From NCBI GenBank assembly GCA_015680685.1, contig MNCI01001153.1, positions 751,160-815,159 of the forward strand: a DNA stretch of 64,000 nt, in the 5' to 3' direction. Made by a program: the position numbers and the translations under genes. The stretch comes from Gnetum montanum (taxonomy: Eukaryota; Plantae; Gnetophyta). The notes below the pieces were generated by a model, which was given only the letters and a program-made list of their open reading frames with translations, ran no database searches and was not told the origin of the DNA. The first letter of the stretch is position 1, and the number at the start of each line of letters is the position of its first letter. Positions 3,514 to 62,179 of this stretch are shown piece by piece.

Positions 3514-5500
3514 GATAAGAGTATGAGTATGTGGAAAAAAATTAGTTTTCCCTTATGTCTGCATGGACCTCATGGTAATATTAAATGGTGTACTGACCCT
3601 AATTACCTAGATCTTGAGCCTAAGAGTCTTGTAAACCACATAGCCTCAATAGAGAAACCTCTAGAATGGTCTAAAAACCTATTTAAAAGCATTGACTTAG
3701 AAGAAAGAGACATAGCCAAAGACTCTCTGGTTGAAGTTCCTATCATAGCACATAGTGATGAGAAGAAAACCCTTAAACTAAGTTCTGCACTAGAGCCTTA
3801 ATGTGCTCAAGACATCACCAAGATCTTACAAAATAACATTAAGGCATTTTCCTAGTCATATGAAGATATGCTATTCCTAGAACCATGTCTAGTCCAACAC
3901 AACATCATATTGGACCCTAGCATTAAACCAATTTAGCAAAAAGTGTGAAAAATTAGACTTGATTTGGCCTTGGTAGTTCACGATGAAATCTTAAAGACCT
4001 ACCAAGTAGGTTTCATTGGGGCTATAGATTATGTAAAATGGGTATCCAACATAGTGGTAGTCCCTAAGAAAAATTGGAGTATCTATATTTGCATTGATTT
4101 TTAAGAGCTAAATAAAGCAACTATTAAGGATGACTTCCGTTTGCTTAGTATTGATCAACTTATCAATACCATAGCTAGACATGCCTTGTTGTCCTTTATA
4201 GGTAGACTTTTAGCATATAACCAAATTAGGATCAACCTAGACCACCAACTTAGCACAACCTTTATGATCCCATGGGGTACTTTGCATTATATCATGATGC
4301 CCTTTGGCCTTAGGAACATCAGAGTGACATACGTATATCTTTAGTGATTACATGTTAGGCTTTCTTAATGATTACATAGATGACATAGCCATGAAGTCTA
4401 AGATGGTTGATGACCATGCTAATGACCTAGATCTTGTGCTTAAACAATGCCTCAAATACAAGCTTAGGCTTAATCTTAAGAACTATGTCTTTAGTTTCAT
4501 GATCTATAAGATGCTTAGCTTTGTAGTATCTAAAGCAGGGATATGCATAGATCTTGATAAGGTTAAGGTCATATCCAAATTATTAGCACCTACCAACCTT
4601 AAAGAGCTTTTGGAATTACAAGATAGATTACAATTTATTCATAGGTTTATCGCTAGGCTTATGAATAAGTTATAGCTCATGCAATGCTTACTTAAGAAAG
4701 GAGTTCACTATGAGTGGATAGCTCAATGGAAAGAGGCCTTTGAAAACCTTAAAAAAGAGTTGACACAACTACCAATGGTCTATTATCTACAAGAGGGTAA
4801 ACTATTTTACATTTATCTCACCATATTTGATACATCCATTGCCTATCTACTCTATCAGAAATGTGATGACAGAATAGAAATGCCTACATACTACCTTAGC
4901 CATACATTAGTTGCCCACAAGACCTAATACACTAAAGTGGAGAAGAATTTTCTAGCACTAGTCTTTTCATTGAAGAAATGGAGATACTACCTCTTCAAAA
5001 GCTAAGTCAATGTAATTTGCAAGGATAACATACTTAGAGTTATAACAATAAACATCTATGAAAGTAGCCATATAGCTTGATGGAAAGCCATAACCACAAA
5101 GTTTGACCTCTATTACATCTCTTAATCCTCAACAAAAGGTCAAGCTATAGCTATACAACTCATAGTTTCACCTATTGATGATCAAGAAACTATAGATTTT
5201 GAGTTTTTTGATGAACACATTGACATAGTTAGCCAAGTACCTGAGTGTTATGATGGAGTCATAAACTTTTATGGAGCTTCAACCATCCATGGGACTAGTA
5301 CTATTGCCATTGTAATATTCCCATCCAGTGAGATCCAATCCTTTGCCTATCATTTTGGATTCCCATGTACCAACAACATAGTGGAATATGAGGCTTTAAT
5401 TAGAGGGATGATGATAGCTTTTAATCTAGGAATTAGATGCCTAGTCATCAAAGGTGATTCATAACTTGTGGTTAACCAAGTAACCAAAGTCTATGCATGA
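3514..5500 (+). pseudogene. Degenerate Ty3/gypsy Tat/Ogre-type pol fragment: RT - RNase H - additional (archaeal-type) RNase H
   Basis: ORF fragments AYNQIRI..TTFMIPWG..MMPFGL, YIDDI, IDLDKVKVI and YYLSH, followed by an aRH-like GFPCTNNIVEYEALIRG. Many stops. Homologous to the minus-strand pol at 15000-17149. Confidence 0.85.
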
Positions 5501-8500: not shown

Positions 8501-9805
8501 GCAAAGTTTTCCCATATGACCAATCATGACTTCCAGAGGAAAGTGGTACATGGAAGAGACCTATCTCTTTTGGAACAATAGACAACCTGGAACCATCATG
8601 AAAATGAAGGACATAAGTGTGTCCTACTCAGTAAAGGCCATCTCGTAGGCCCTTGGTCTACCTAAAACTAGAACCAAGCTGGTAGAGATCTCTACACAAG
8701 TAGATCTAGAGGTCAAAAAGAAGTCGTGCACTCACCATGGTAGAACATGTGTACTTCAAGATAGTGGCCTACCACCTCAATTTGATGGTAAGGCCTAGCA
8801 AGGTGGCTACCTTCTTTGCCTATGTGTGCACTACTCTAAGCTTGAAATTTCCTGTTAACCTCCCACAACTAATCTATCTAGAGATAGAGAAGTGATTTAA
8901 ATAAAATGAACATGGGAGAAAGACACTTCCCTTCCCATGCCTCATCTAGAAATTATGCAAAAGAGGAGGGATAGCTTACTACTCCACCAATACATTCAAA
9001 CAAGCTCCTACTACCTCTTGGGTGGAAATGATAAAAGATAAGGTCCCTACCATGACTAAGGAAGAGGAGCAACCACCACCACCACCCACTTATGAAATAA
9101 AATTGGAGGTGTGTGCTGCCATGGAGTGCATGCAATAGCTCTAAGAATAAATCTTATAACAACAATAAGATATTCCAAGTGGTGGCTCATTTATCTACTG
9201 ACCAACCTTGAGCCATTTGAATGAGGTAACTCATACAATAAGCTAGTTAGAGAACATGACACCAACTTTCTTTGCCTGAAGAACATAGGTAGTTACATGC
9301 TTGAATCCAAATGCGCAAGAGGTAATGGTATCCATTCTAGAACAACAGAAGTTCCTAGTGTGCTTGGAGGTGGAGGATGTTGCTACCTTCTTAGTGTGCT
9401 TGGAGTTGGGTGATGGGATGACTATCTTGGTGATGTAGCATCAATAGTAAAAATGGTGGTCAAGGTGATAGCAAATTGAATGGGTGAGGTCATAAATTTT
9501 CTTATGACATCTATGTTGAATGGTGCTTCACTCAGAGATGTGTAGACACCTATAAGAATGATCTCTAGGAGATTTAGTACAACTCAACATGAGGAATTGT
9601 TTGAAATACTAGTGGGAATATGACAACTAATTTTAGAGTTCTTTGACCTCCTAGATGACATCACTGCTACCAACTCAGTGTGGTTATAGGCAAGGGATAT
9701 GTGCATCATTGTAAAGGCTCAACTTCAAATAGCTAGAGCTAGAAAGCAATGCTTGGCTATGGAGGTTGTAGAATTTAGAGCCTAGCTTGTTAATCCCATA
9801 GTACT

Positions 9806-11774
9806 TGTAGCATCCAAAAATGTTGGTGGCTAGAACACCAAGGATCACTGGGTACACAGCCTAACCCCGAGTCTATGGAAGGGTCGTATTGGAGAAGACT
9901 AAAATGGGGTGCCATGAATGGTCTAGTCAATTAGATAGGGACTTATGTGATGTACAATAACTATTTGTGAATATAGTTTTGAAAGCATCACATGTGGGAG
10001 CCAGGACAAGTAAGAACAAGACATACACAACAATGTGAGTGTACCAATGTGTATTGACAATAGAACTAAGTAATTATGTTAACAATTTGAAATACATGCT
10101 GAAATGAAATAAAGTGCAAGTTTAGGTGAAGAAATGAACCACCCCAAGTTTGGGGAATGTAGCTCTTAATTAAGTGATGTATTAAACTTGTACACAGTAT
10201 TAGACAGGCATAACAAGACAACAAGGTAGTATGCTCACAATCTCTGGGACATTGGAAACACGGTGCTAGTAGCCACCAGGGGAGCTAAACCTACTAGGTT
10301 GGTCATTGTCATGTTGTGCAAGTATGGGGTCATTATTATCAATAAGGTGTCATGCTCAAGTGATCAAGTGCAGAGGTGAGGAAAATTTTGGGAATGCTCT
10401 AATTCTAAGATTTTCCAATCATCAACTCTTCACTTGCCAATCTTTTGCAAAATCCAACTATAAAATACTAGAGCCACGGTTGATGACGGACATGGATTGG
10501 GTGCCACATGGCCTGGGTCCCACATAGCATGAGTATGAGCAAGTCACATTGACATGCTATGCTCAAAGTGTTAAGCTCAATAGTGCTACACTTTACATGA
10601 TAGGAATGGGAATTGAAAATCCACCAAACTATGACCATACTACATGAACTACATGTGCTAAATTCTGAAGGACTAACATGTACCTACAAATAATGTGAAA
10701 ACATAATGCAATTTAGAGCCTACACTCTAGGACTAAATCTTCCCCCTCTTTTGATTAGGATCAAGTGTAGGAACAATTCTGGGAATCAATAAGAGATGTA
10801 CTAGAAGGATGTTGGAGCTAAGAAGAAGATTGATGCAAATTTTTTCGAGCTCTTGGAGGCATTCGAAGGTGTTTTCCAAGTGTTATGCTATCTATGCTGC
10901 CTAGCATGATGAAGTGTAGCATGAACACTTAGAAACTTTTTGTAGTTTTCAGCTTGCTAGATTATCTATGCTGCATAGCATAGCTAAGCATAGCATCCAT
11001 TTTACAATGAATTTGATCAAAACTAAAAATTCCACTCTAGGATGTATTAAGATAGGAAACTTTAGCAACCAGAAAATGCATCTTCCATGTTAGAATAGCC
11101 TAATGCCTCTTATTTTCACACTTAGAAAAATATTTTCCTCGAAAACCTATAATGTTGGTTGTGCTATGTAGTGTAGTAGGGTGTAGCAACAATGTTGTAT
11201 GAATTTTTCCAAAATTCACAAGGTTTCTTTATGGAATTTTGACCATACTCTAAAGGTGAAGCAAGACAGGTAGTCTCAGTAATTAGAAAATTACCAAATT
11301 TGACAAACTCCAAATCCAACACTTAGAAAACTTTGAGCTCCTGAACTTGTCCTACGTTGTCTATTTTGTGTAGCTTACCAACCCCAAAAGATAGAAAAAT
11401 TGCCAAACTAGTTTTTCCATACTAAGCACCTTTGATATCTCCTAGCTTGGCACTTATGTGGACTAGCGATTGAGACATGTGTCAAGCTAAGCAAGCCAAA
11501 GAGCATAGCAAGCTTGACGGCCCAAGAGATAGAACATTTGCCAAATTATTTAGTCCATCCTCAGTGCCCTTCCTTGGAAACATGTGCTATATTGGTTGTG
11601 CTAGGGAGTCTAGCAAGAAAACTTAGAAAAATTTTGCAAACATTAGGATTTCCAGTGTGCTATGCTATCTACGCTATGCAATGTGATTCCAGACTTAGAA
11701 AAATTTTTCCCAAGTCTTGACACTTAGACAATTTTGTTGTTGAGTTGCAAGAGCCTGAAAGTAGTGGTGTTTCA
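9806..11774 (-). repeat. 3' LTR of the Tat/Ogre-like element
   Basis: Plus-strand TGTAGC...GTTTCA; colinear with 27355-29394. Confidence 0.9.
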
Positions 11775-13699: not shown

Positions 13700-16600
13700 A
13701 CTCCATGTTAAGTGTAATATGAATTTATGTACAAGTGGTTGATAGGATTGACAAACTCATTGCCATATAAATTATCAAGCTTGAAGGCTTCATTTTCATA
13801 TGCCTTAGTGACCAAGAAAGGCCCTTCTTAGTTAGCTAAGAAATTGTTCACGGGCTCGCAAATAGCCTTGAGAACTAGGTTCCCTTTCTTGATTGGGCAC
13901 TGGTGTAGATTGTGGTGATGCTTTTTCCATTGCTTCTCTTGGTACCACTTGATGCAACCAAGCATTTGGATGCACTCTTCCTTTGTAGAGTCAAGATCAA
14001 TGGTTCTCGACTCATTTTTTTGAGCCTCATCCATGAAGTTTGAGAGGATCATGTGAAGTAATGGAACTTTTAATTCAAGAGGAAACATTGCTTTAGATCC
14101 ATATACAAGACTATATGGTGTTTTACCTATTTCAGTTCTACATGTTATGTGGTAGGCGCAAAGTGCATAGATGAGTTATTCATGCCATCATTGCTTGCTA
14201 TTGCTAAGTGTCTTCTTTAGAAGGTTGATGATGACCTTATTTGTAGCCTCTACTTAGCCATTTTCCTGAGGGTAGTACAATGATGAAAAGGAGTGTTTAA
14301 TGTTGAGGTTTTCATAGAAGGCTTTGGTTTTTGTACTACTAAATCATGACCTGTTGTCTGTGACTATAGTCATGGGGAGACTAAATCAGTTCACTATATT
14401 ATCAAGAATAAATTTGCAAACTTTCTAAGATGTTTTCTTCCTAAGGGGGATAGCTTCTACCTACTTTGTGAAATACTCAATTATGATAATAATGAAGTTG
14501 TGTCCTATGAAAGAATTAGGCGCTATAGGTCCTATGATGTCCAACCCCCAACATTGAAATGGATATGTGATTTGTGTAGTATGTAGTTCGGTCAGTGGCA
14601 TATGTATGAGATTCCCATGCCACTAACACACATTTCATGCCTTGACCATGGAGACATAATCATGCTCCATATAAGGCTAGTAGTAGCCTAGACGCCATTA
14701 CCCTAGTAGCTATATGCCCCTCACATAGTCCTTCATGTACTTGGTCAACAATCTTTTGTGCTTCATTGTTGCTAACACAAGTTAACAATATCCCAACATA
14801 AGGTCTATAACATAAGGTACTGTCACCTATGAGGACATACTACTGCAATTATTTTCACACTATGTCCTTTTGGGTAGGTGCTAAGTTTTATGGGGTTTCC
14901 CCCTATTAGAGGTATGCTTTGATGTTGTCATACCATTCCTAGGCATGAAGTGTACTTATGGATGCAATACTTGGTGTGTGGATTATAGGTTCAATGCAAT
15001 CCATTATGGAAGCAGGCAAAGTAGAGAACATATTCATTGATACACTTAAGCCTAACGTGGCCACTGCGTTAGCTATGACATTTTTGTTGTAAGGAACATG
15101 TTGGACATCTATGGTTGCAAATTTTTTTAATAAGCACTTTGCAAAATCATATTAAGGTTGTAGGTGTTATTCTTTATAGGCATAAACCTTTGTAACTTGG
15201 TTAATAACTAACTATGAATCACCTCAAATTTCTATATTTCAAATACCTAGCTCCTGAGCTACTAGAATACCTCTAAGGAGACCTTTGTATTCTACTACAT
15301 TGTTTGTACAAAGAAACACAAAGTGGTACACAAAAGGTTGAATCTCTCTAGAGGGAAATCTGATAACAACAGCGGCACTACCAGCTTACGTGGTAAAAGC
15401 ACTATCAAAGTGTAAAATGGCCTCAAATTCTATAGGTACCAGGCTTATACTGCTAACATGCTTGTCTAGGAATTCTAGATCTACTATTGCCTGATCATCT
15501 ATAGGTGAATCTATGAGTTGCATGGGTATTGCTTGACCCTTTGTGGATGACTATGCTATGTAATGTAGGTCAAAGTCTGTGGTTATTACTTTCCATCTAG
15601 TTATTTTGCTACTTTCATATATTTTGGTTCTAATGGCCCTAAGTATGTTAGTCTTGCAAATTATGTTGACTTGACTATGGAAGAGGTAGTGCCTCCATTT
15701 TTTATACACAAAACCAAGGAAAGATAGTTTTTCTCCACATCGTTGTATTTTTCCTTGTGCACTATTATTGCATGACTTAAGTAGTTAACAGAAATCTCAA
15801 AAACATCATCTCTCTTTTGACAAAGTAGAGAAACAATGGATGTGTTTGAGGTTGCGAGGTAGATGTAGAAAGGCTTATCTCTTTGTGGAGGATAGATAGT
15901 TGGGAGATGAACTAGCTCCTTATTCAGGTTGTCGAATGCTTCTTGGCATTGATTTGTCCACTCAAAGTTGACTCCTTTTTTGAGTAGGTGTTGCATTGAG
16001 AGTAACTTATTAGTTAACTTGGTAATAAATCTATTTATAAATTATATTCTACCTTGTAATCTGCATAACTCCTGAAGGTTTGCTGGTGGTGCTGAGTTGA
16101 TAATAGCCTTGACCTTATCGGGATCTACGTGTATTCCTATTTCTAATACTACAAAGCCTAACGCACAACTAGTTTTAATGTTGAAGACACACATTTTGGG
16201 ATTAAGGCAAAGGTCATGCCTATGGCAACATTGAAGGACAAGGTTCAAGTCATTTGTGTGGTCATGAGCCTTCTTGGACTTAACCATTATATTATCAACA
16301 TAGTCATTTAGCTATTTTAGAATATATTCATTAAGATGTAGGTCATTACATGTTGGTATCTTGCTCCAGTGTTTTTTAGTCCAAAGGGCATCATTGTATA
16401 GCAAAATTCCCCTAAGGGGTCATGAAGGTAGTAGTAAGTTGATGTTCTAGTTTTATACAAATTTGGTTGTACCTTGAGAACCCATCCATGAAGGATAACA
16501 AGCCATGACCGGTCATAGTATCGACAAGTTAGTCAATACTAAGAAATGGTAAATCATCTTTGATGGTTACCTTGTTTAAGTCTCAAGAGTCTATGAAAAT

Positions 16601-17149
16601 GCATATACCCCTAGTTTTCTTAGAGACAATCATGATGTTTGATAATCAACTGCCTAGATGAACCTAGCTTGGTAGAGTTTAATTATTTCTTCATAGATGG
16701 CTAATGCGATTTCTGGCTTGATTTTATGAGCTTTTTGTTTGAATGGCTTGACACATGGATCTAAGATAATGTTGTGTTGTATTATGTGTGGGTCTAAGCC
16801 CAACATATCTTCATAAGACTATGCAAATACCTTTACATTGTTGTTAAGAACTCTAGAGATACTTTGCTAGATTTATGGCTCCAGTAAAGAGCTAAGCTTC
16901 AAAGTTATTACCTCACCTTTACATGTTGTTGTGGCGGTTTCTATGAGTGGATCCTAAGTTACATCACCAGCTTCTAAATATAAAGCTTGGACTAGATGTT
17001 TTGGCTGGTCTAGTGATGTTTCTAATGATGCTATGTTGGTATCACAAAGAGGTGGTTCAAATTCCAACATCTCATGAGTTTGCCATGGGTTCCATTTGAG
17101 GTTAAAGATGAATGAAGATTCTTGTGTGTGCTCATTTTCCCAAACAATC
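13700..17149 (-). pseudogene. Tat/Ogre pol: RT, RNase H, additional RNase H, integrase (degenerate)
   Basis: ORF remnants IHVDPDKVKAI, FYIYLATS..NYLSH and MFPLEL..KKGNLVLK. aRH FVCTNNVVEY at ~15290-15320. Integrase YYPQ.NG..VEATNK at ~14235-14280. Confidence 0.85.
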
Positions 17150-27349: not shown

Positions 27350-27354
27350 AAAAT

Positions 27355-29394
27355 TGTAGCATCTAGAAATGTTGATGGTTAGAACACCAAGGGTCATCAG
27401 GCACATAGCTAAACCCTGAGTTCATGGGAGGGCCATGCTAGAAAAGATGGAAATGGGGTCCTTGACTAGTTCAGTTAATTAGATAGGGACTTATGTGGTG
27501 TAGAATAACCATTTGTGAATAGAGTTTTGAAAGTGTCACACACAAGAGTCAGGAAAACCAAGAATGGGACATACACAACAACGTGAGTGTGCTAATGTGT
27601 ATTAACAATAAAACTAAGTAATTATGCTAACAATTTGAAATACATGCTAAAAGAAAATAAAGTATGAGTTTAGGTGAAGAAATGCACCAACCCAAGTTTC
27701 AGGAATGTAGCTCTTAATTAAATGGTGTATTAAACTAGTACACAATATTAGACAAGCATAGCAAGATAGCAAGGTAGTATGGTCATAGTCTTTGGGGCAT
27801 TAGAGGCATAGTGTTGGCAGCCAATAGGGGAGCTAAACCTACTAGGTTGGCCATTATCATGCTATGCAGGTATGGAGTCATGATGCTCAACAAGGTGTCA
27901 TGCTTGAGTTCTTAAGTGTAGAGGTGAGGAAAATGTTGGAAATGCTCTAATGTTGAGATTTGCCGATCATCAACTCTTCACTTGGCAATCTTTTGCAAAA
28001 TTCTATTATAAAAGCCAACCCTTGGAATGTTGATTACTGGGGTATTTATAGAGCCAAGACTAATGAGGCATGTGGATTGGATGCCACGTGGCTTGGGTCC
28101 TGTGTAACATGAGTGTGAGTAGGTCACACTGACATGCTACACTCAAAGTGTCAATCTCAATGATGTATGCTTTACAGAATAGGAATGGGAACTAAAAATC
28201 TACCAAACTATGACCATACTACCCAAACCACATGTGCCAAAGTATAAAGGACTATCATGTACCTACAAAAAATGCTAAAACACAATGCAATTTGGAGCCT
28301 ATGCTCTAAGACTATGTCTTCCCCTTCTTTTGAGTAGGGTCAAGTGTAGGAACAATTTTGGAGATCAATAAGGGGTGCAAAAGGAAGGTAAATTGCTGAT
28401 CTTGACCACTAGAAAGATGTTGAAGCTAAGAAGAAGGTTGATGCCAAGTTTTGGGAGCTCCTAGAGGCATTTGAAGGTGTTTCCAAAGTGTTATGCTATC
28501 TATGCTTCCCAGCATAACGAAGCGTAGCATGAACACTTGAAAATTTTTGCAATTTTTGGCCTACTACACTATCTACATTGCACAACATAGCCAAGCATAG
28601 CACCAAATTTTTAGTAAATTTTGTCAAAATTGGAAATGCCACTATGGGATGTAGCAAGATAGGCAACTTTAGCAACTAGAAAATGCATCTTCCATGTCAG
28701 AAAAGCTTGATGCCTCCTATCAGCCTCAAAAACCTATGATGTTGGCTGCACTATGTAGCATAGTAGGTGATAGAAACAATATCAAATAGTTTTTTTAAAA
28801 ATTCACAAGGTTTCTTTATGGCATCCTAACCATGCTTTGAGGGTGAAGTAGGATAGGCAGTCTCAATACTAAAAAATTGCCAAATTTGACAAACTCTAGA
28901 TCCAACACTTAGGAAAATTTTAGCTCTTGAACTCATGGTACAGTGTCTACACTATGTAGTGTAGCAAACCCAAAAGATAGAAAATTTGCAAAAAAAAAAT
29001 TCCATGCTAAGCAGCTTTGACAACTCGTAGCCTAGCACGTTGGTGGACTGGCAACCAGGACATGTGTCAAGCTGGGCAAGTCAAAGAGCATAGCAAGCTT
29101 AATGGCTTGGGAGATAGAAAATTTTCCAAACTATTTGGTCCATCCTTAGTGCCCTTTTGACTTCTTTTGGCTTGATGTTTATGTAAATTAGCATTGTAAA
29201 CATGTGCTACGCTGGCTGTGCTAGGGAGCGTAGTAGGCAGACTTAGAAAAATTTTGCAAACATCAGGATTTCCATTGTGCTATGCTATCTACGCTGTGTA
29301 GCATGATGCCAGACTTAGAAAAATTTTGCTGAAGTTTTCACACTTGGACAATTTTGTTGTTGAGTCACAAGAGCCCAAAAGTAGTGGTGTTTTA
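27355..29394 (-). repeat. 5' LTR of the Tat/Ogre-like element
   Basis: Colinear with 9806-11774; followed by the GTACT TSD. Confidence 0.9.
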
Positions 29395-34360: not shown

Positions 34361-34834
34361 TGATAAAGTCAAGTTTTTATTACAAATGACATAATAGCAA
34401 TGACATCGTATCAACAATGTCATTGATACAATGTCAACACTATTAATATGTCATTGTTGATATGATATCTCAGGATGTGTGTAGCACTATAAATATGACA
34501 CTTGGATGCACAATTCTCTAACTTTTCATTTCCATAGTAACCAAACTATTTGAATTTCATTTCTTAAATTTAGGTTTAGTAACTAGTAGTGTGAATGCCT
34601 ATAGTGGTGTGTGTCATAGTGAACGGAATCTTTGTTTGAGTAGTTTGTACTTGGGCATTAGTTGTGAATAGAAATAAAGATCAAAGCTATTTTCCATCAT
34701 TGTAGCATTCTCCTAGTTTACTGTTTTCACTTATTATAATGTTTACTATTTTACTATCATAATAATTTATTTTCCAAAGAACTTTATTTTCACTTGTTAA
34801 TAGTAAGTGGAATGAATATGACTAATTTTGAGGG
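34361..34834 (+). repeat. 5' LTR of element B, left part
   Basis: TGATAAAGTCAAG.. colinear with 53500-53970. Confidence 0.85.
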
Positions 34835-34847
34835 TGGTATCGGAGCC
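34835..34847 (+). promoter_or_regulatory. Minus-strand primer-binding site, tRNAiMet
   Basis: TGGTATCGGAGCC versus the canonical TGGTATCAGAGCC (one change, compatible with a G:U pair). Confidence 0.9.
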
Positions 34848-35000
34848 TTGTTGCGGTTCTTCGTCATTCACCGCCAGGGGTGGACGTGAGGGTTGCTCAT
34901 AAGCTCGTTCGTGCAGTGCGAGTAAGCCACGCCGTAACGGCCGACGGACAGGCGAGTAAGTCGTGCACGCTAGAATCTGAACGCAGAGTAGGCACGTCTA

Positions 35001-38000
35001 ATGGCGAGTTCTTCCCGAAGACCAACTCCAGGTTCTCAATCTACTTTCTCTTATATTCAACGTTTGTCAAACTATTGCTCCTCAGCGAATGCTAGTATGT
35101 TGCCACCACCTCCATGCCAAAAAGATTTCTATCCCAAATCCTCATTGCACACTTTTGAATCATTTCAGTCTATGCATTTTAGTGAATGTGATCTCGGTAT
35201 TGCTGGCTCTGGCCTTCGTCCAGTAGCTCTTACTTTTTTTGACCCGGGGGAGGTTGCTAAATGGAAAAAAGCAGGTTATCAATATATCCATCTTGCTGAA
35301 ATTGCTATTCACCTTCATCCACACTTCAACTATCATCTCAAAAAGCCTTACTGGATTGCGTTAATAGATAGGAGATTTAAATCGTTTCAAGAAGCCATTA
35401 TAACACAAGCTAAAGGTAGGTTAGTATCCGATGCTCTAATTATAACGATTCCTAACTTTACTCTCTCGCTTTCTGATCCACATTTGTTTAATAGTCTAAT
35501 GCTTATTACTTATATTCCTATTGATATTATAGATCGAAGTGTTTATTGCACAATAGGTACAAGGTTAAGTTTTAAATTATTTATTTCAGTCAGTATCCAA
35601 ACACTCTTACCTTTTGGCCAACAAGCTCTCTCTGTTGGTTCAACAAATTTAGAATACGGGACACAGATTAACACAGAGGATCTTCCGATCCATAGGCTTT
35701 TTCCAGACCTAGAAGATCCGTTAGAAGAATACTATGAGCAGAAAAGACCTAAAAAGTCTTTATTCAGATCATCATCTAAATCTCGGAGATACTATGTAGA
35801 ACTACAACCACCAAAACTCCTTCCTTATGATCCATTAGCTCCCAAACCTATAAAACCCACAAAACCAGTAATCCTGTTTAAAAAACAAAAATCAACTTAT
35901 GAAGAACAGGAAGAAAAAATAAAAAAGATGGGAAAAATGTTCAAAGAACTAGGTATCACTTTAGATCCTAGGAGAGTCATAAAACAAAAGGGAGAAAAAC
36001 CTGTAATCATCACTGAACAATCAGAAACAGATCAAAAAGGAAAAACCATTCTAGAAGAAGTCTATACATCTAGTTCTAGTTCTGAAGATGATGTACCATG
36101 CTCAATAAAATCATCACAAAGTTGTACGCATAAGAATCTACATAAGATAGATCATGACATTAGGTGTGTTGAGTGTGATGAGTTATTAAGGATCAACATG
36201 AATACGGAAGAACCAAAAGAAGTAGCACATATGATGCAATATAAGCCATCTGTAGAACAACCTTCTGAAGTCATTAAACTCCATAATTGGACTAACCATA
36301 AGTTATCCTATGTAAGTGACCAAAACTTAATGACATATGCAGAAGTAAAAGAAGTACAAAGAGATGTAAAAGATTTGCATAAAATATGGGTTCCTAAACA
36401 AAAAAATGGAAAATCTAAGGGTAAGAAAGAAAAGAAACCTGATCCGTCTGATCTAGATGGAATTTACTTAGATTCACCACCTATCACTCCTCCTAAAGGA
36501 AAAAAGAAATCAACAATACCTTATGTCCCAACTTATGTCCCAAAAAGACGACCAGTACATACAATTCCAAAATCTGAAAAAGGGAAAAAAGAGGAGGAAG
36601 AGATTAATGCTAATGAAGAAGATAACGAAACCCTTTATATTGGAAGTGAAGGATCTTTAGATGAAGAAGAAAAGAAAATGTTACAAAAACAAGGAATGAT
36701 CTTCCAAGATCCTAAAGATTTGACAGGTATGCAAATCCGAAAGACATCAGAAAAACCACCACCATATTTTAGTATGGACAACAAATCTATTAGAGAAAGA
36801 CAAAAAGAGATTGATAAAATCAGCGGTTTCATCGCTAGGCAAATTGTCTTAGAAAAGAAAACATATGAACATGCCATACTCAACGCCACATTAAATTTCG
36901 AGGGTATGTTAAAACGTTGGTGGAATTTCATAGAAGCTCCTGTACGAAAAAAATTATTAAATAATCCGCATGTTATTTTCTTAAATGCTATTACAAAAGA
37001 ATTCTTAGGAAATAAAGCTGATAGGGATAGTGCATATAGAACTTTGTTTTATAGTTCAAGATTACATAAGATTCAGGACATGTCTCCATTCCTTGACATC
37101 ATGGAAGAATGGTATTACTATGGAAAACTCATACATGACGTAGGTGCAAAAGAACATCTGTTAGGATGTCTTCCAACGCCTTTTGCTAGTTATTATCGAG
37201 CTCAACTTCAACATGAAGAAAAGGATCTCGAGGAAATGAGTTTTAGTGCCATCCGTCAATTCCTTGAAAAAGTCACAAGGGATCTGTGTGTCCAGCAAAA
37301 AACACAAAAATTAGTAGGATCCTTAACTAAACAAATAGGTAAAGACTTATGTTTACAAATGTGTCCTGAAGATAATTTTGGACAGCTAATTAGAAATAGA
37401 AAACAACAGTCTGAGCCATGTGTATGCAAACCTACACAACGTACATCACAAAAGTACTCAAAACCAAAGAAAGTCTGGAAACGGAAATTCCAGCCAAAAA
37501 TCAAACGAAAGAATTGGCCACAAAAACCTTTTAAAGGCATGTTTAAACGAAAACAAGGGCCGTATAAAAACAAGGAAGTCAGGTGTTTCATTTGTTCAGG
37601 GAAGCATTATTCTAACCAATGCCCAAAAAAGGATAATCATCCTCAACGCATTAATTTCATTGAAACAATGAAACTTACAGAAGATGATTTCTTCCTAACA
37701 TATGATTCTGACTTATCATTCTCAAATGGGGATATTTATTTAGAATCTTCAGATCAATATTCTAGTGAAATGGAATTCGAAGATATTCCTGACTACCCCA
37801 ATGAACCAGGCGAGTTAAATTATGATACAGATTCTTCAGGGTATATGTATCATGTTTACATGAATGAAGAATCAGGAAGTGATGATCTCTATGAAAGAGA
37901 TCCAACATATTCCATGTTAAAAAGCCAACTACGCCAATTAGAAAAGAAATGGCAAAAGGTTCCTTTAGATGACTTACATAAATTTAGGGCCTACAAACAC

Positions 38001-40190
38001 AAAGTAAAATCTAAACGGAATGAGATTGAAACACATAAGCAAATGATTGAGGAATCATTTGGTATATATCAAGATTCCCAGAATCCAAACACCGTAGATT
38101 TTGAAGAGGAGATACAAACACCACATACTGAAGAAAGAGCAGTTACACCGGATATACAAACTTCTATGTGGCGACAGTTTCGTATCAAGCAACTCAAGAA
38201 GTATCTTCAACAGGCCTCCGAGGAACTTGAACGCTTAGAACAACAAGAAGAGAGTTGGCAACAAGCAGAATATGAGAAGGAAACAAAACAGGTAAGCGTA
38301 ATCCTAGAAGTAAACTGTAATACTTCACGACCAATCTTACCTGCCTGTACATTTAATATATCATGGCCTAAATATCATAGGTATACAATAGATTTTTTGT
38401 TTGACACAGGCGCGGAAGTATCACTTGCTAGAGAAGAAACAATTCCATCTTGTTTTTGGGAAGAAAAGGAACCATCCCACATTTCCTTCAACACCCAAAA
38501 AAGATTACTCACAAAGCAAGCTAAGTTACCCGTTGTAATGCCTGATAAAAAAATAGTGTATTTTATTGTCTGTCAATTTCCTTTACCCTCTTATGATTGT
38601 TTAATAGGATCAGACAATTTACAATATTTTGATATTACGATTACTAAGCAATTTATCAAACTAGATGAACAGAAGTTCCCTAGGGTAAATGCTAGACAAC
38701 AGTTTAAAAATCAAAAACACCAAAAACATAATCAGAAAAGAGAAACTTGGATTGTTAACCAAATCGAAAAATATCAACCAAGTTTTGACGACATAAAAAC
38801 TCAATTACTCCAATTTGCAAATGATGACCCGACTGTGTTTCGTCATAAGAAAGAACATTGGTGTCAGATTGAATTACAAGATGGAGTAAAAGTAAAGTCT
38901 ACTGCACAACATATAGGAATGTCTCCTAGTCTCAGAAAAGAATGTGAATCAGAAATCCAAGAATATTTACAAAGAGGTTTAATACGACCAAGCACCAGTA
39001 TGTTTGCTTGTGCTGCTTTCTTTGTAAACAAACGAGCCGAATTAGTCAGAGGAAAAAAACGTTTAGTAGTTAATTATAAACCTCTGAATGATATTATTAA
39101 ATCAGTCCAACATCCTATTCCAAATAAAGATGATTTATTTCAACGACTGCCACATACGAATATCTATTCCAAGTTTGATTTGAAATCAGGATTTTGGCAG
39201 ATCCAGATTCAGGAATCTGATCGTTGGAAAACGGCTTTCACAGTACCCGGTGGATTATATGAATGGAATGTCTTGCCGTTCGGCATCAAAACTGCACCAT
39301 CCATTTTCCAAAAAATGATGGATTCTATTTTCCATTCTTATCCTTTTATATTAGCCTACATAGATGATATTTTAGTTCTGAGTAAATCGGTAAAAGAACA
39401 TTTAGATCATTTGCGTATTTTTTCTGACCTCATAGATAAAAATGGACTTGTCCTCTCACCAACAAAAATGAAGATCGGACAGTCTAACATTGAATTTTTA
39501 GGTTTAGAAATCTCTACTGGTATTATAAAATTACAACCACATATAGTCCAAAGTATTGTTCAGTTTCCTGATATCTTAGAGAACAAAGTCCAGATACAAC
39601 GGTTTTTAGGCTGCATAAATTATGTTTCTGGTTTCTTTAAGAATATAGCTAAGGAACGAGATGTATTAAATATATTATTACAAAAACATTCTCCTCCATG
39701 GACCCCTGCATGTACTGAGGCTGTGCAGAAGATCAAACAAGCATGCCAAGAATTGCTGCCACTGTTTCTTCCAGGTGAAGGTAAGTTCATCCTTGAAACT
39801 GATGCCTCTGAATGTTTTTGGGGCGCCACTCTAAAACAAGAACAAAACCGTACGATCAGGATCTGTAGATATGTTTCTGGAAAATTTAATGAAGCACAGC
39901 AGAAATATCACAGTTCTCATAAAGAACTTCTAGCCATTGTTAAGGGCATAGAAAAATTTCGGTTATTCCTCCAACCACAACGTTTCATCGTCAGGAGTGA
40001 TTTAAAACATTTTGACAAGTATCTACAATCCAAAAACCTAACAAAGGTGGCTCATACACGGCTAATCTGATGGAGTTTATTTTTGGCTAATTTTGAATTC
40101 GATAGTGAATATATTGAAGGCTCAAAAAATTGCCTTTCTGATTTTTTAACTAGAGAGTTCCAACTCTCTAGTAGTACTAATGTTTTATAG
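35001..40190 (+). CDS. Caulimovirid ORF1 polyprotein: 30K movement protein - coat protein with zinc knuckle - aspartic protease - RT - RNase H. About 1729 aa, with one premature TGA at 40068-40070
   Basis: MP: YIHLAEI..LIDRRF..PNFTLSLSD. Knuckle: CFICSGKHYSNQC (37584-37622). Protease: FDTGA (38400). RT: AAFFVNK..RLVVNYKPLN, SKFDLKSGFWQI, YIDD (39357). RNase H: ETDAS..KELLAI..RSD. The frame continues past the stop as WSLFLANFEFDSEYIEGSKNCLSDFLTRE to TAG at 40188-40190. Confidence 0.93.
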
Positions 40191-41140
40191 TTTTATTTTC
40201 AGAACTACTCTGTAGCGAAGGATGGACTCTTCGTTCCTCAAGGAGATTACGTCCTAGTTTACCAAATGAAAGATTTCTTAGTTTTCCTCAATATTTTAGT
40301 GAAACTAGTAGATTTGGTAATGCATGGACTGCTTTCTGTAATGCCACAAGATCTCAAAGTTCTGATGCCATCATCACTCAAAAGGTTTTTTCAGCCCTTC
40401 CACTGCCTGCAAGAAGATCTCAATGGGATCAAATTCCAGCTCCATACCTTTTCCTGGCCACAGATGTGAATCTCACTAATCTAGAATTCCGTAACTGGTA
40501 TTCTGCTGATTGTTTAAACTGGCCATATTACCAGCCAAGTGATTTTCATGTTTACCGCATCTCTTTTAGTCCCCTCAGTGCACCGCCAGACAATGATGAA
40601 TTATTCTGGAATTGGTGGGCTAAATTCGGTCATTCCCCTTCTCATTTACCAGCCAATTATCCTGGTCCTCTTCGCACAAGTCTCTATGGCTACCGGGGTG
40701 ATTTCTCATTCTATAGGAATCCTGATCACATGGCCTGGAATTTTTTACACATGGCATCCAACCCAGTCTATTTTCTCATTACTTGCATATCCAAAAGGAC
40801 AGACTGGCAACTCACATGGGGCGAAGCTTTTTACCAAGATGTGTACACCGCTAATGCCTATGATATCTAGCACCACTGTCACATCCATTTAAAAGTCCCG
40901 TATACTTTAGAGCTTTATTATATGGACCGCAGGATTGATGAATATCGTAGCTCTGGAGGAAAGGAGATCAAACTTTATCTGGTTGGCGAGCACTCAGAAG
41001 ATGCTGATGATAGCACGGATAGCATGCCTAATAATTCTCCCGGACGATATGATTACAGCTCTGAAGACTTCCACAACCATACAGACGATTCTGATGGACA
41101 TAGTGTCGATTTTGGTCCAAATAGTCCACCATCACGTTAA
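40181..41140 (+). CDS. Caulimovirid ORF2, ~319 codons, no 5' AUG, one premature TAG at 40868-40870; function unknown
   Basis: One frame is open from 40181 and joins track ORFs 40466-40870 and 40922-41140 through HHCHIHLKVPYTLELYY. Contains FWNWWAKFG and an acidic Asp/Ser-rich tail. Confidence 0.75.
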
Positions 41141-41143
41141 AAA

Positions 41144-41225
41144 GCTGTCTGCCACAATCTCTTAAAGTGGATCCGAATCCTAAAAGGCTGTCTGCCACAA
41201 TCTCTTAAAGTGGATCCGAATCCTA
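41144..41225 (+). repeat. Perfect 39-bp direct repeat, period 43, upstream of the viral TATA box (candidate enhancer)
   Basis: GCTGTCTGCCACAATCTCTTAAAGTGGATCCGAATCCTA at 41144 and 41187. Confidence 0.9.
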
Positions 41226-41275
41226 GAAAGTAGATCGTCCCAGTTGGCATCCATTAATGTAAGGCGGTTTGTAAA

Positions 41276-41285
41276 CTATAAATAG
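41276..41285 (+). promoter_or_regulatory. TATA box of the pregenomic RNA promoter
   Basis: CTATAAATAG in the intergenic region after the last ORF, the usual caulimovirid position. Confidence 0.8.
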
Positions 41286-41519
41286 CAATGTGTGTGTGTG
41301 TAAGCATATGGTAGATAAGAATGCAAGTAGCATAAGTGAGTAGTCGGCAAGTGTGAGTTTCTTTCTGCAAGAGTGAGTAGTTATAAGGAGATGATATCAG
41401 TTTCTTGATGCTCTCTGCTCAGAAACTAAGCATTCTCTCCACTGAAAGAGAAATCGTTCTGTGATGCGCTTTGCTCAAGAACAAGAATTCCTTTCAGTTC
41501 TGTAAATACTGGTGTGTGC

Positions 41520-41525
41520 AATAAA
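41520..41525 (+). terminator. Viral polyadenylation signal
   Basis: AATAAA ~240 nt after the TATA box, with upstream TGTAA (41501) and downstream GT-rich sequence; would define the terminal redundancy. Confidence 0.7.
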
Positions 41526-41610
41526 ATGATTTGTTTTGGCATATCTGTGTGTTATTTGGTCTGCATTCAAATGAGCGTATGTATTAGTTCTGTGTGAACG
41601 CTGCGTACTG

Positions 41611-42022
41611 AGAACATTTGATAATCCTAGTAGTATTATCAATTGCTTCACCTAGTAGTGTAATGCTTGGTAATCCTAGTGATAATTATATGAACCCAAG
41701 ACATGTTTGGTAAATTAGGAATAGTTATCCATTGCCATAGGATAGATTTACTTACTTGTTCTCACTTAGATTTAGTACCTACTTTCATCCTTATCGTGCC
41801 TACAATTTGGAGTATTAGTGGCCAATCAACATCACTTATCATATGCCTCACTACAAGCTAAACCATACACTTAGACTTTACTAGCTTGAGTGGGAAGATA
41901 ATGATCATGATCTTAACTCAACTACTAGCATATCAACATTGACAATCCATGAATTACAATAGGCTACATGTGAATACTCATAACTTGTATGAATGCTTGT
42001 TGGATTACTACACCACTCATTA
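41611..42022 (+). repeat. 5' LTR of element B, right part
   Basis: CATTTGATAATCC.. colinear with 53985-54325, with ~80 bp extra. Confidence 0.85.
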
Positions 42023-53499: not shown

Positions 53500-54325
53500 T
53501 GGTAAAGTCAAGCTTTTGTTACAAACAACATCATAGCAATGATATCATATCTATGATGTCATTGATACGATGTCAACACTCTTAATACATCATCATTAAT
53601 ATGATGTCTCAAGATGTGTGCAGCCCTATAATCATGATGCTTGAATTCATAATTTGTGAGCTTTTCATTTCCATAGTCATCAAACTCTTACAATTTTAGT
53701 TCTTGAATTTAAAATTAGCAACTAGGAGTGTGAATGCCCATAGTGTGGTATGTCATAGTGAATGGAATCTTTGTTGGAGAAGTTTGTACTTGGGCACAAG
53801 TTGTGAATGAAAATAAAGATTGAAGCTATTTTCCACCATTGCAACATTCTCCTAGTTTACTATTTTCACTTAGCATAATGTTTACTATTTTACTAGCATA
53901 ATACTTTATTTTCCAAAGCACTTTATTTTCACTTGTTGATAGTAAGCAAAATGGATACACTTGATTTCAAGCATTAAGTGTGATCATTTGGTAATCCCAA
54001 TAGTATTATTGCTTAGTTCTTAGCTCACGTAGTAGCATAATACGTGGTAATCCTAGTGATGATTACATGAGCTCAAGATGTATTTGGTAAATCAAGAATG
54101 CTTATTCATCACCATAGGCTAGAATAGATTTACTTACTCATTCCTAGTTAGATTTGGTACCTACTTTTATCTTTATCATGCCTACACTTTGGAGAAATAG
54201 TGGCCAATCAACATCACTTATCATATGCCTCACTACAAGCTAAACCATACACAGATTATGATTAAGTGAAGTGTGAACACTCATAACTTGTATGGTTGGG
54301 TGTTGGATTACTCCACTACTCATCA
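53500..54325 (+). repeat. 3' LTR of element B (uninterrupted)
   Basis: TG..CA termini; PPT at 53491-53499. Confidence 0.9.
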
Positions 54326-56933: not shown

Positions 56934-59900
56934 TGTTAGGTGTATTGTTAATTTTAAGTTTAAAACACCTTCATGTTGTAACAATTTCCATGTTGACAAA
57001 TTATTCTTGGCATGTTGGCTGAAAATAACAAAAGCCAAAGTATATAGTATGTCAAAAGAATATGTAACCACTCACACCCAATTTGACCATGATTAATTAT
57101 GAATTATAACCCCATAATTTAGCTTTTACCCAAAGCATGGCATTATGAAGACTATATAAGTGGATGCTTTGGTGGTCTTACAATCACACCTTCACCTAAT
57201 CAATGGGTGTATGAGGCATAATTCAAGTTTTAGTCTCTTCTTCTTGTGAAAACTTGATCTAAGCTTGTTGTAAGTATCAAAGAAAAGAAGACTTATATTT
57301 CTAAGTCTTTGTAAGAGCTAGAGTCATTGCTAGGGTTCTCATATGCTTTCCCCAAGATAATTTCTTGTATTCTTGATGCATTTCTTCTAATTTCATAATT
57401 GAATATCTATTTCTATCGCTTGATATTACTTTATTATCTTACTCAATTGATGTGTAAATTAAAAAAAATAGTATCAAAGCATAGTTCATTTGATTCTCAA
57501 GGCTCTTATCTCATTAAGTGCTTTAAGATGGTAACGATTGCTAAGTACATTGAAGAAATAAAAAAGTTTAATAGCAAAAACTACAATCTTTGGAAGCTCC
57601 GAATGGAAGATTTGCTATTTGAAAAGAAACAAGGTGTATGCATCAATGGAATTAAATAAAATATCATGAAAGGTAAAGACTAGAATCAGTTAGATCATCT
57701 AGCTTTGGAAACAATTTGTAAAGGTATTTCTAATCCTATGCTTATAAATTTACAAGATGAAGAGTCTGCAAAAGGATTATGGAATGTTATGGATAAGATA
57801 TACCAATATAGTTCTTACTCAAATAATTACATCTTAAAAGCTAATTATTATTGTTAAAGATGTCTAAAAATAATGCTATTAATCTCATCTTATTGATTTC
57901 AATACTATTTTGAGCTAATTATAATCAATTGTTAGTAAGATGGATAAAAGAGATCAATGTATTTCCTCATTACAATTACTTCCTAATTCATGGAAAAATA
58001 TTGTTAGAATACTACCAATATAAGTACCTCTTTAAAATTACTTTTTACAATAAAAAAATAAAGAATAAATACACAAGGAAAATTTGAAATCAAAAGGATA
58101 CTCTTAAAAGGAGGGTATTAACTATGAAGAAGGTTTTTCACGAGTGGTTAAGTTAACATTGATAAGATCTTTAATGTCTTTTGTAGCCACTTTAGATCTT
58201 AAACTTGAACATATTGATGTTAAGACTATGTTTCTTCATGGAGATCTTGATAAAGAAATCTACATGCAATAGCTTGAATGTTATGTGGTTAAGGGCAAGG
58301 AAAACATGATATGTCTCTTACTAAAATACTTGTATGGGTTGAAACAATCCTCTATGATGTGGTATAAGAAATTTAATTCTTGCATGATAACATCTAGTTT
58401 TGTATGGTTGTTAACAACCCTTGTATTTATCTAAAGGAAAATTCAAAAACTTGTTTAAAATTGCTATTTTATATTGATGATATTTTGATAGTAGGGAACA
58501 ATGTGCAAGAAATCACTAAGTTGAAATGCCAAGTATCATCTCAATTTAAGATGAAGGACCTTGGTACCAGCAGAAAAGCATTAGACATGAAAATTAAAAA
58601 GGATAAAAAAGAATAAAAGTTATGGCTTGGTCCATCTAAATATGTTAATAAATTTTTAGAAAAATTTAATATGTAGGATTGTAAGTTAGTAAACACTCCA
58701 TTATTTGTGATCATGAAATTATAAATGGAGAAATGCCCTAGAAAAGATGAAGAAATGTAGAAAATGCGAAAAATCCCCTATACAAATATTGTAGGAAGCC
58801 TCATGTATGCAATGGTTTGTAGTAGGCTTAATATTACATATGTAGTAGGATCTAAGAGTAGGTTTATGTCTAATCCTTGTAAGAAACATTGCATGGCCTT
58901 AATAGAATTCATAGGTATATTTGAGATACTATTAAGTTTTCCATCTATTATGAGAAAAGTTCCTTTGGATTGCATGGGCTTGTGGATGTAAATTATAGAG
59001 GTGAACTAGATCACCAAAAATCCATAAGTTGATATGTTTTTTAAAATAGACATAGGTGTGGTTAACTATATTAGCAAAAGACAAAGCTTTGTTGCATTCT
59101 TAACAACAAAGGTAGAGTGTGTAGTAGGTTCTTAAGCAATAAAAGAAGTAGTTTGGCTACAATGATTTGTCAAAGACTTTAGATAAGAATAAAAGAAAGT
59201 AAACATCTCTTGAGATAACCAAAGTGCAATATTTCTAGCAAAGAATCCCAAGTTCCATGTGGAAAAAACACACTATGATAAATTATCATTTTATTTGGGA
59301 TCAAATTAAAAAAATAAGGATTTCTCTAAAAAAGGTTCCTACATCAAAAGATCCACTAGATATGTTAAGGTAATTCTTGTGCATAAGTTTAACTAGTGTA
59401 GAAAAGAAATTCGATTGTTAAAATGTAAAATACAATTGTTGCTCCTAGCTATAAATCCTTAAAATAAATAACCAATGGAAGAATCTTAGATATGTTGTTA
59501 ATTTTAAATTTAAAACACCTTCATGTTGTAACAATTGCCATGTTGCAAAATTATTTTTGGCATGTTAACTAAAAGTAACAAAATCCAAAGTATGTAATAT
59601 GTCAAAATAATATGTAACCACTCATACCAAATTTTATCTTGATCAATTATAGATTATAACTCCATAATTTGGCTTTTACCCAAAGCATGACATTATGAAC
59701 ACTTTATAAGTGGATGCTTGGGTGGTCTTACAATTACACCTTCACCAATTATAGGGTGTATGAGGTATAATTCAAGTTGCAGTATTTTCTTAATATGAAA
59801 GCTTGATCCAAGCTTGTTTTAAGTCTCAAAGAAAAGAAGCCTTTGATTTATAAGGCTTGCTAGGAGCTAGAGCTATTTCAGGGTTTTTTTTATGTTTCCC

Positions 59901-60012
59901 AAGGGTAATTTCTTATGTTCTAGATGCATTTCTTCTAATTCTATAATTGAATTTTTATTTCTACTTCTTGTTGTTACTTTATTATCTTACTTAATCAAGG
60001 TGTAAATTAACA
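56934..60012 (+). mobile_element. Internally deleted Ty1/copia element (~3.1 kb)
   Basis: ~530-bp LTRs at 56934-57464 and 59484-60012; decayed Met PBS TAGTATCAAAGC at 57469. Confidence 0.88.
57528..59430 (+). pseudogene. Copia gag N-terminus joined directly to RT/RNase H; protease and integrase deleted
   Basis: KFNSKNYNLWKLRMEDLL, then DVKTMFLHGDL, LYGLKQS, FYIDDILI and PYTNIVGSLMYAMVC. Confidence 0.85.
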
Positions 60013-61991: not shown

Positions 61992-62179
61992 NNNNNNNNN
62001 NNNNNNNNNNNNNNNNNNNNNNNNNNNNNNNNNNNNNNNNNNNNNNNNNNNNNNNNNNNNNNNNNNNNNNNNNNNNNNNNNNNNNNNNNNNNNNNNNNNN
62101 NNNNNNNNNNNNNNNNNNNNNNNNNNNNNNNNNNNNNNNNNNNNNNNNNNNNNNNNNNNNNNNNNNNNNNNNNNNNNNN
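61992..62179. other. Assembly gap (N run)
   Basis: 188 N. Confidence 1.

Follow-up and report, generated by a model that had tools for sequence, protein, structure and literature searches.

A window of 64,000 nucleotides from Gnetum montanum (contig MNCI01001153.1, positions 751,160 to 815,159, forward strand; coordinates below are those of the window, that is, of the whole stretch analysed) contains an element that an earlier note, made from the letters of the DNA, had read as a near-intact, unit-length endogenous pararetrovirus, possibly of an undescribed lineage. The element raises two questions: whether a complete genome of the family Caulimoviridae is lodged here, and how its second open reading frame (ORF2), which opens without an AUG, could be expressed. 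The feature set of a caulimovirid is present: a 30K movement protein (MP), a coat protein (CP) with zinc knuckle, an aspartic protease (AP), a reverse transcriptase (RT) and an RNase H1 (Table 1). Pfam matches of the polyprotein, ORF1, follow the order MP, AP, RT, RNase H (nine matches); a scan of six frames gave no integrase family among these nine, and no terminal repeat of the element's own was found, the flanks being the two halves of a single host repeat. Read as a circle, the map has a tRNA-Met primer-binding site (PBS) and a promoter upstream of a polyadenylation signal, which fits the Caulimoviridae, and in the tree described below the RT-RNase H region groups with caulimovirids, with support of 100/100 against three gypsy-like outgroup rows. 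The results bear out the assignment to this family: MP, CP, knuckle, AP, RT and RNase H are present, integrase and long terminal repeats (LTRs) were not found, and the RT-RNase H region lies in the caulimovirid clade. We conclude that the element is probably a whole, slightly damaged caulimovirid genome, which is opened at the primer site and interrupts a host repeat. The type is already known; whole endogenous caulimovirids have been recorded in large numbers from gymnosperms, mostly through RT fragments. A fuller reading is that the element and one relative form an undescribed genus-level gymnosperm lineage, among the smallest one-piece genomes, with a short zinc knuckle, with recent activity in several related hosts, and with a florendovirus-type ORF2 spliced in the style of rice tungro bacilliform virus (RTBV); taken as a whole, we give this reading a probability of roughly one in six. 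Papers are cited by PMC number or DOI.

Evidence for unit length comes from another copy. In one contig of sequencing run X7, position 41586 is joined back to 34833, with 29 letters between the two as compared with 27 here, and that copy therefore forms a closed unit of about 6.78 kb, either circular or part of a tandem array. The joint bears out unit length for the element, whose ends at 34833 (2 nt 5' of the PBS) and about 41613 lie within 3 nt of the positions 34835 and 41610 first proposed, and PBS, polyprotein, ORF2, repeat, TATA box and polyadenylation signal follow one another within about 6.78 kb in the order that the earlier note had given. The compactness it had remarked on also holds, and is a weak lineage marker: 6.78 kb is about 165 bp less than the shortest among 57 caulimovirid records fetched (6,945 nt), four of which are under 7.0 kb (6,945-6,994 nt). 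The size falls outside the 7.1-9.8 kbp that the virus taxonomy committee, ICTV, gives, descriptively, for the family (PMC13308828). Because four of 57 records fall below 7.0 kb, and because 10.1101/170415 states 6-8 kb as genome size, the ICTV range is not a strict criterion. Since all core domains are kept and the polyprotein of the sister sequence is merely 39 aa longer, the small size is likely natural. An open-access literature search for the smallest caulimovirid genome returned nothing on point.

To which lineage does the genome belong? In an AP-RT-RNase H search, of which the best 120 of 545 matches and the best 150 representatives were examined, the only close relative among the matches listed was P0002 (RT 71%, MP 65% and CP 52% identity), a Logan contig of 6,010 nt with an uninterrupted polyprotein of 1,768 aa, with which ORF1 is collinear throughout at 43% identity. 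The next nine RT matches by score have 52-57% identity, and the nearest named RT-RNase H sequences are Ginkgo Gb_06750 (50%), Taxus chinensis KAH9328950 (49%) and Cryptomeria GLJ29319 (48%), all below the genus-level cut-off for operational taxonomic units (OTUs), which is 62% RT identity (PMC13308828). Judged by these identities, P0002 is a second species of the same genus-level group, and the two together are a genus-level group apart from all named sequences compared, a set outside which the OTU sequences of PMC13308828 lie. Locus searches with a single protein or a two-row alignment gave no match; with a seven-row alignment they gave 57 loci in viruses and 54 in metagenomes, all at 47% or less. 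The gene model of the Taxus chinensis sequence KAH9328950 (P0012) combines a caulimovirid polyprotein fragment with a glycosyl hydrolase 28 domain, a fusion that probably arose in annotation.

The tree (IQ-TREE; 36 rows from 108 dereplicated of 236, plus two virus records, with rows near the element kept and others thinned) unites the element and P0002 with support of 100/99 and places them in a six-row group with the Ginkgo, Taxus and Cryptomeria sequences and the P0015 cluster (93/89). Together with two other branches the six-row group makes up a clade supported at 97/99, the others being a petuvirus-like clade (100/100, with record L001) and a florendovirus-like clade with its sisters; a quick tree of 72 rows agrees (SH-aLRT 94). 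This 97/99 clade is clade B of PMC5766536. By itself, the placement with Ginkgo, Taxus and Cryptomeria sequences makes a gymnosperm host likely. The element lies outside the 100/99 clade of six florendovirus-like rows, so labelled from their angiosperm hosts, PF24925 and layout. The florendovirus layout that had been recognized in the element is thus shared, and membership of the florendoviruses is not upheld, given this position and the RT identities of 52-57%. Nesting of the RT at high identity within a described virus, raised beforehand as a possibility, was not seen among the named sequences compared, in the RT-RNase H tree or in the RT matches.

The lineage has probably been catalogued already by its RT, among the Gymnendovirus subdivisions or as one of OTU 1-35 of PMC13308828, with only its genome map unreported; this is compatible with the fuller reading set out above. 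PMC13308828 screened 27 gymnosperm genomes and assigned 47,135 RT loci to OTUs, of which there are 71, 35 of them new and 26 of these in clade B; some have hundreds to thousands of copies, and the family of the present element is abundant in four organisms. On the other side, no named protein falls within the 62% RT cut-off among the ten best matches, and the host may be outside the screened set. An RT motif was found in none of the 12 of 14 supplementary files of PMC13308828 that were searched. The proposal of a distinct genus-level lineage accordingly stands as to distinctness from every named sequence compared (52-57% against 62%) and does not stand as to its being undescribed, the survey's 35 new OTUs not being among the sequences compared.

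The zinc knuckle, which had been offered as a further mark of a distinct lineage, does not serve as one. Its short CX2CX3HX4C spacing recurs in three of 92 knuckle-bearing relatives, namely the clade B elements P0002, P0014 and P0015, on two tree branches, and among these sequences it is uncommon, not unique. An open-access literature search gave no earlier mention of a short knuckle in caulimovirids. The P0014 and P0015 clusters, on different tree branches, have 13 and 8 members on contigs of up to 8.0 kb and comprise uninterrupted single-ORF clade B polyproteins of 2,227-2,266 aa with this knuckle.

Expression of ORF2 is a question only if the frame is real. None of 10,000 shuffles had a plus-strand frame with at most one stop, and because none was equally open, the ORF2 frame is not due to chance. 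A region of ORF2 with the motif W-x-x-W-W-x-K-F-G matches ORF2 of the florendovirus-like L058 over 48 residues (score 74, 0 of 1000 shuffles), and the same region matches the extension that follows RNase H in P0299 (score 81, 0 of 1000 shuffles). The P0299 extension is the best of 167 targets for ORF2, with 0 of 40 shuffled queries as good, and a hidden Markov model (HMM) of L058 ORF2, P0299 and P0014 gave ORF2 6.9 bits, a score reached by 1 of 1000 shuffles. ORF2 has no similarity to the C-terminal extension of L001, where 636 of 1000 shuffles did as well, or to the final ORF of L055 (788 of 1000) and no useful match in Pfam, and its single-sequence structure model has a predicted local distance difference test (pLDDT) score of 32. 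On these comparisons, ORF2 probably belongs, as a distant member, to a single putative accessory protein family of clade B. The motif would tie the ORF2 of florendoviruses to the C-terminal extensions of some single-ORF relatives, that is, to one accessory protein, split or fused. A reading of ORF2 as a RES-domain protein was rejected, the Atlas rows being sub-threshold (0.83) and noise. The L058 sequence is a metagenome contig (L058:317-11037) holding about 1.4 head-to-tail florendovirus-like units, 7,565 nt apart, with MP split off the polyprotein and open ORFs.

Splicing offers a precise model for ORF2 expression. Four GT[AG]AG donors lie in the 5' leader, which has eight AUGs, and only the donor at 41336 is inside an upstream ORF (uORF), the first. 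The acceptor ending at 40202, which is 22 nt into the ORF2 frame, ranks first when the element's 202 YAG sites are ordered by the number of Ts in the 18 nt upstream. Both sites are in phase 1, and a splice from donor to acceptor would place the uORF AUG in frame with ORF2. There is a precedent: in RTBV a leader uORF is fused to ORF IV by splicing (PMC5902531). The same source proposes splicing or a subgenomic RNA for florendovirus ORF II and leaves the choice open. In L055 (8,002 nt), taken as RTBV-like from uORF contexts as quoted in PMC5902531, the donor at 7504 and the acceptor at 5972 are both in phase 0, and the last ORF has no Met in its first 29 codons. The uORF stop context of the present element, which PMC5902531 quotes for RTBV and rice tungro spherical virus (RTSV), occurs in one of the 57 virus records, L055. 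We tentatively predict, at somewhat less than even odds, that ORF2 is made by RTBV-like splicing from the first leader uORF. An open-access literature search found no earlier description of a spliced ORF2 for any gymnosperm element. Should the junction prove real, splicing from a uORF to the last ORF would occur in both main branches of the Caulimoviridae. The prediction also offers a precise answer, and one open to testing, to the question of how clade B viruses with two ORFs and no translation transactivator express their last gene. If the fuller reading is true, this would be the first RTBV-style spliced ORF2 in clade B and a direct handle on ORF2 expression in viruses of florendovirus layout.

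Several observations weigh against parts of the proposed explanation, the first of them against splicing. Agreement in phase between donor and acceptor is by itself a one-in-three chance, and ranking by T count is a crude guide, for it puts the corresponding acceptor of L055 at 39 of 311. The uORF AUG is 31 nt from the TATA box, compared with 122 nt in L055, a distance that would probably leave it very close to the cap. In many other copies there is an insertion of 5 nt directly 3' of the donor GT (summed depth 218 of 301 in run X1 and 137 of 156 in run X8), which keeps the donor hexamer and moves the uORF stop; because the stop is shifted, the RTBV-identical stop context may not be family-wide. 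No spliced read and no joint was found in four RNA runs (four of six raw runs, of each of which 2% or 26% was read), with ORF2 depth below 1 and so too shallow; the reads per run number 192, 112, 152 and 176, run in both directions and are mostly less than 95% alike, only 2, 8, 0 and 0 being at least 99% alike. As to the origin of ORF2, three earlier HMMs that did not include L058, built from petuvirus-like and other C-terminal extensions, failed on it (248, 44 and 129 of 500 shuffles as good), and a search of 5.8 billion proteins for relatives of 175-559 aa gave 672 candidates, none with E<=0.01. As to the lineage, support for the gymnosperm group, at 93/89, is below the starred level.

The missing start could instead be damage in this copy, the family having an AUG-led ORF2 that overlaps ORF1, as florendoviruses do, or a fused polyprotein of about 2,050 aa, as Petuvirus does, which we consider less likely. 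The frame of ORF2 opens just 7 nt before the end of ORF1, with an out-of-frame AUG at 40180, and ORF2 of L058 has a Met at codon 8 and overlaps ORF1. A fused frame would resemble the extensions of 349-394 aa after RNase H in P0015 (of the same six-row group), P0014, P0299 and L001, and the single ORFs of Pinus nigra virus 1 (PNV1; 2,129 aa) and of the Welwitschia viruses WMV1/2 (2,264 and 2,111 aa; PMC6256638; 10.1101/2022.02.23.481439); further lesions in this copy also fit damage. The sequences P0002, P0150 (Ginkgo) and P0151 (Cryptomeria), however, likewise end at RNase H, which favours a true split between ORF1 and ORF2, although these ends may be gene-calling or contig ends. Moreover, 0 of the 12 best-supported indels shown (of 32) is at the ORF1/ORF2 border, which is precisely where the genome has its strongest acceptor-like site. 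The description of ORF2 as AUG-less is thus right for the frame up to 40730, and AUG-lessness does not hold as a lineage marker, since RTBV-type splicing or damage in this copy would explain it.

Less likely still is that ORF2 is AUG-less by design and expressed by another route: a near-cognate start on a subgenomic RNA, a -1 frameshift, or another pair of donor and uORF. Relative to ORF1, which it overlaps briefly, ORF2 is in the -1 frame, and it has an ATA at 40187; RTBV uses non-AUG starts, and a subgenomic RNA is the other proposal for florendovirus ORF II (PMC5902531). The first 40 codons, however, hold a single near-cognate codon, and no canonical slippery heptamer is seen by eye.

How the genome came to lie in the host DNA can be read from its flanks. 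The matching flank stretches, 34361-34818 on the left and 41609-41870 and 41969-42020 on the right, correspond to one uninterrupted copy at 53500-54323 (81-87%), and the interrupted host repeat is likely an LTR. Contigs of the empty site join 34830-34832 to 41615 with 14-15 letters between them (three rows). Because the empty alleles show these 14-15 letters at the site of the virus, the virus took the place of about 13 bp in a single host repeat; there is no target-site duplication, and the virus has no LTRs. In almond, 77% of complete florendovirus copies have the breakpoint next to the Met-tRNA site (PMC13658181); opening at the primer site is the usual case. Capture of filler DNA in break repair is the standard integration model (PMC10377300), and the viral DNA was likely captured by double-strand-break repair. 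The observed/expected ratio of CpG is 0.59 inside the element and 0.09-0.14 in the flanks, and that of CHG 1.13 and 0.26-0.32; because both are barely depleted inside as compared with the flanks, the insertion is likely young by this measure, with little methylation-driven decay. The locus is a clean, likely young, unit-length record with both junctions and the empty allele, and fits capture of virus DNA opened at the primer site. Parts of the element occur in 13 of 23 sequencing runs from four organisms; in four runs compared, 6,607-9,905 short contigs, mostly 85-95% alike, cover 30 of 30 bins including the flanks. The family is thus many-copy and diverged, the contig tallies giving no copy number. 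That the element is a virus-retrotransposon chimera moved with LTRs (it lies in a likely LTR, its first bases are a PBS as in LTR elements, and LTR-bearing pararetroviruses are reported from grasses; 10.1101/2025.06.08.658526), or a deleted derivative of a longer genome, as its size below the family range might suggest and as had been considered beforehand, is very improbable, and both readings were rejected as largely refuted: the flanks are two halves of one repeat and not two copies, empty alleles exist, target duplication is absent, no domain is missing, the P0002 polyprotein is collinear, and the other copy closes at the same length.

The state of this copy sets limits on its own activity. 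Each ORF has one in-frame stop, in ORF1 within RNase H; there may be more lesions than the two bases whose reversion the earlier note thought enough to restore the genome, as at many sites nearly all other copies differ from this one; and the promoter lies in the linear copy downstream of all genes and points into host DNA, a consequence of the layout that the earlier note missed. Because the promoter is 3' of the genes, this linear copy alone would make no pregenomic RNA (pgRNA) or spliced RNA and would need a circle or a head-to-tail array; endogenous petunia vein clearing virus is activated from head-to-tail arrays (PMC10377300). Its 3' promoter, its two stops and the other differences peculiar to it make it likely that this copy is inert, and the RNA of the four partly read runs gave no sign of active infection.

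A cycle of pgRNA and reverse transcription is established for the Caulimoviridae. In the cycle proposed here, transcription of the circle, driven by the TATA box at 41277, would run through the full genome, passing the polyadenylation signal a single time, and yield a terminally redundant pgRNA. This RNA would be the template for the MP-CP-AP-RT-RNase H polyprotein; the coat protein would package it, and tRNA-Met would prime its reverse transcription. DNA in linear or gapped form, with its end at the primer site, would then be captured as break filler, with about 13 bp of host DNA lost and no duplication. The AUG-less ORF2 would be expressed by a splice out of the leader's first uORF, which only a circle or a head-to-tail array would allow. 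Its product would be a distant member of the accessory protein of clade B, which florendoviruses carry as ORF2 and some single-ORF relatives as a C-terminal extension.

The leader and promoter of this model have further features. From the PBS at 34835 to the ATG at 35001 there are 166 nt free of AUG. As to the family's shunt configuration, in which a uORF precedes a stable stem-loop, the leader has eight AUGs; when its two halves were folded one at a time, neither exceeded shuffles in stability (z +1.10 and -0.66), and the structured leader described earlier is not supported by them. The 43-bp repeat upstream of the TATA box is likely an enhancer duplication. The octamer GTGAGTAG is present in the leader and also at most about 500 nt from the PBS in six of 57 caulimovirid records (L009:20, L016:7353/7364, L024:22, L025:7201, L034:37 and L055:7508); it may be a recurrent donor-like leader signal, possibly also suppressing the first polyadenylation site.

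Comparison with known systems places these features. Record L001 (7,206 nt), to judge by its size and layout, is presumably petunia vein clearing virus. This Petuvirus record is like the element in belonging to clade B, in polyprotein order and in having ORF1 close behind the PBS; it differs in having a single ORF of 2,179 aa instead of two, with 48% identity in RT and 44% in RT-RNase H, and the element falls outside its 100/100 clade. Florendovirus (PMC4241990) shares with the element an MP-CP-AP-RT-RNase H polyprotein and a downstream ORF2 in another frame, likely remotely homologous to that of the element, and the Met-tRNA-site breakpoint is common to both (PMC13658181). Florendovirus genomes, however, are 7.2-8.5 kbp with an ORF2 of 45-58 kDa (PMC4241990), whereas the element is 6.78 kb with an ORF2 of about 310 codons, and it is unlike them in its ORF2 without early AUG, in its CX3 knuckle, in its probably non-angiosperm host and in its position outside the florendovirus-like clade. 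Gymnosperm clade B elements (Gymnendovirus 1-4, PMC5766536; subclade B.2, PMC13308828) are likewise endogenous and many-copy; the nearest named proteins, from Ginkgo, Taxus and Cryptomeria, share one tree group with the element (93/89) and have 48-50% RT-RNase H identity to it. Among the mapped gymnosperm viruses considered, PNV1 and WMV1/2 are single-ORF and WolV1 is 9.6 kb, whereas the element is two-ORF and 6.78 kb. Tungrovirus (L055) has a leader uORF donor spliced in frame to the AUG-less 5' end of the last ORF, the model predicted for the element, and the uORF stop context of this copy; it belongs to clade A, has extra ORFs I and II (four ORFs in all) and 36% RT-RNase H identity, its P4 has no homologue found in the element, and its splicing is demonstrated whereas that of the element is predicted only. 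Wollendovirus WolV1 (clade C, PMC13308828), likened here by description only, also has a gymnosperm host and a polyprotein with an unknown ORF2; it has 9,631 bp and proteins of 2,107 and 568 aa, and is sister to clades A and B.

Within ORF1, the predicted fold of the coat region gave as its top seven rows in the PDB Copia, Arc and PNMA2 capsids at E 0.04-0.23, none with E<=0.001, and the region aligns with a part of P0015 that overlaps the PF22909 match of P0015. The N-terminal 900 aa gave no short relatives (2,113 candidates, none with E<=0.001). The PBS motif TGGTATCGGAGC occurs once in the window, both strands having been checked. The second-ranked acceptor-like site (a U-rich tract followed by CAG, 35571-35589) is inside the MP region and may serve a second splice of the pgRNA, as in cauliflower mosaic virus (CaMV). 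RNA reads of diverged copies end in A-runs at 35295, 35745 and 35864 in the MP region (3-7 reads at each, from runs X16 and X17), a sign that transcripts of other copies may be polyadenylated prematurely.

Table 1. Coordinates of the features of the element and of the host repeat that it interrupts
Feature	Position	Strand	Details
5' part of interrupted host repeat	34361..34832		84% over 458 nt to uninterrupted copy at 53500-53957
Unit-length endogenous caulimovirid genome	34833..41613	+	About 6.78 kb; from the junctions and the end-to-start joint in a contig of another copy
tRNA-Met primer-binding site	34835..34846	+	TGGTATCGGAGC; minus-strand priming; compare the WolV1 PBS (PMC13308828)
3' part of pgRNA leader	34847..35000	+	No AUG; GTAAGC at 34922, GTAAGT at 34956
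ORF1 polyprotein	35001..40190	+	1,729 codons; ATG at 35001, stop at 40188-40190; in-frame stop at 40068-40070
30K movement protein core	35178..35507	+	PF01107, E 1.5e-11; 65% to P0002 over 194 aa
Coat protein, predicted Ortervirales capsid fold	36753..37400	+	AlphaFold2 pLDDT 87.6, 19-row alignment
Zinc knuckle CX2CX3HX4C	37584..37622	+	One residue shorter than usual
Aspartic protease	38385..38642	+	PF00077, E 2.2e-4; DTG at 38403
Reverse transcriptase core	39033..39512	+	PF00078, E 3e-35; YIDD at 39357
RNase H	39699..40160	+	PF17919/PF17917, E 3.5e-22; stop 40068-40070 near its end; read with X at the break
ORF2 frame	40181..41140	+	319 codons; first in-frame ATG at 40730 (codon 184); in-frame stop at 40868-40870
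Predicted splice acceptor	40182..40202	+	U-rich tract and CAG; last intron base 40202; phase 1 of ORF2 frame
Tandem repeat	41138..41230	+	43 bp, 2.1 copies, 96% matches (Tandem Repeats Finder, TRF); upstream of TATA box
Putative TATA box of pgRNA promoter	41277..41282	+	TATAAA
First leader uORF	41308..41343	+	11 codons; predicted donor GT at 41336, phase 1; stop context GAG TAG TCG
Putative polyadenylation signal	41520..41525	+	AATAAA; 243 nt 3' of TATA box
3' part of interrupted host repeat	41614..42020		Matches 53979-54323 at 81% over 274 nt and at 87% over 52 nt

Elsewhere in the window, the assembly has a single N at 2508 and a gap of 188 nt at 61992-62179. Old host repeats form a direct 2-kb pair at 9805-11772 and 27354-29392 (77%), a direct 527-nt pair at 56936-57462 and 59486-60010 (84%), and an inverted 1.7-kb pair at 3821-5496 and 15180-16852 (67%) with decayed RT/RNase H-like fragments, so labelled by eye.

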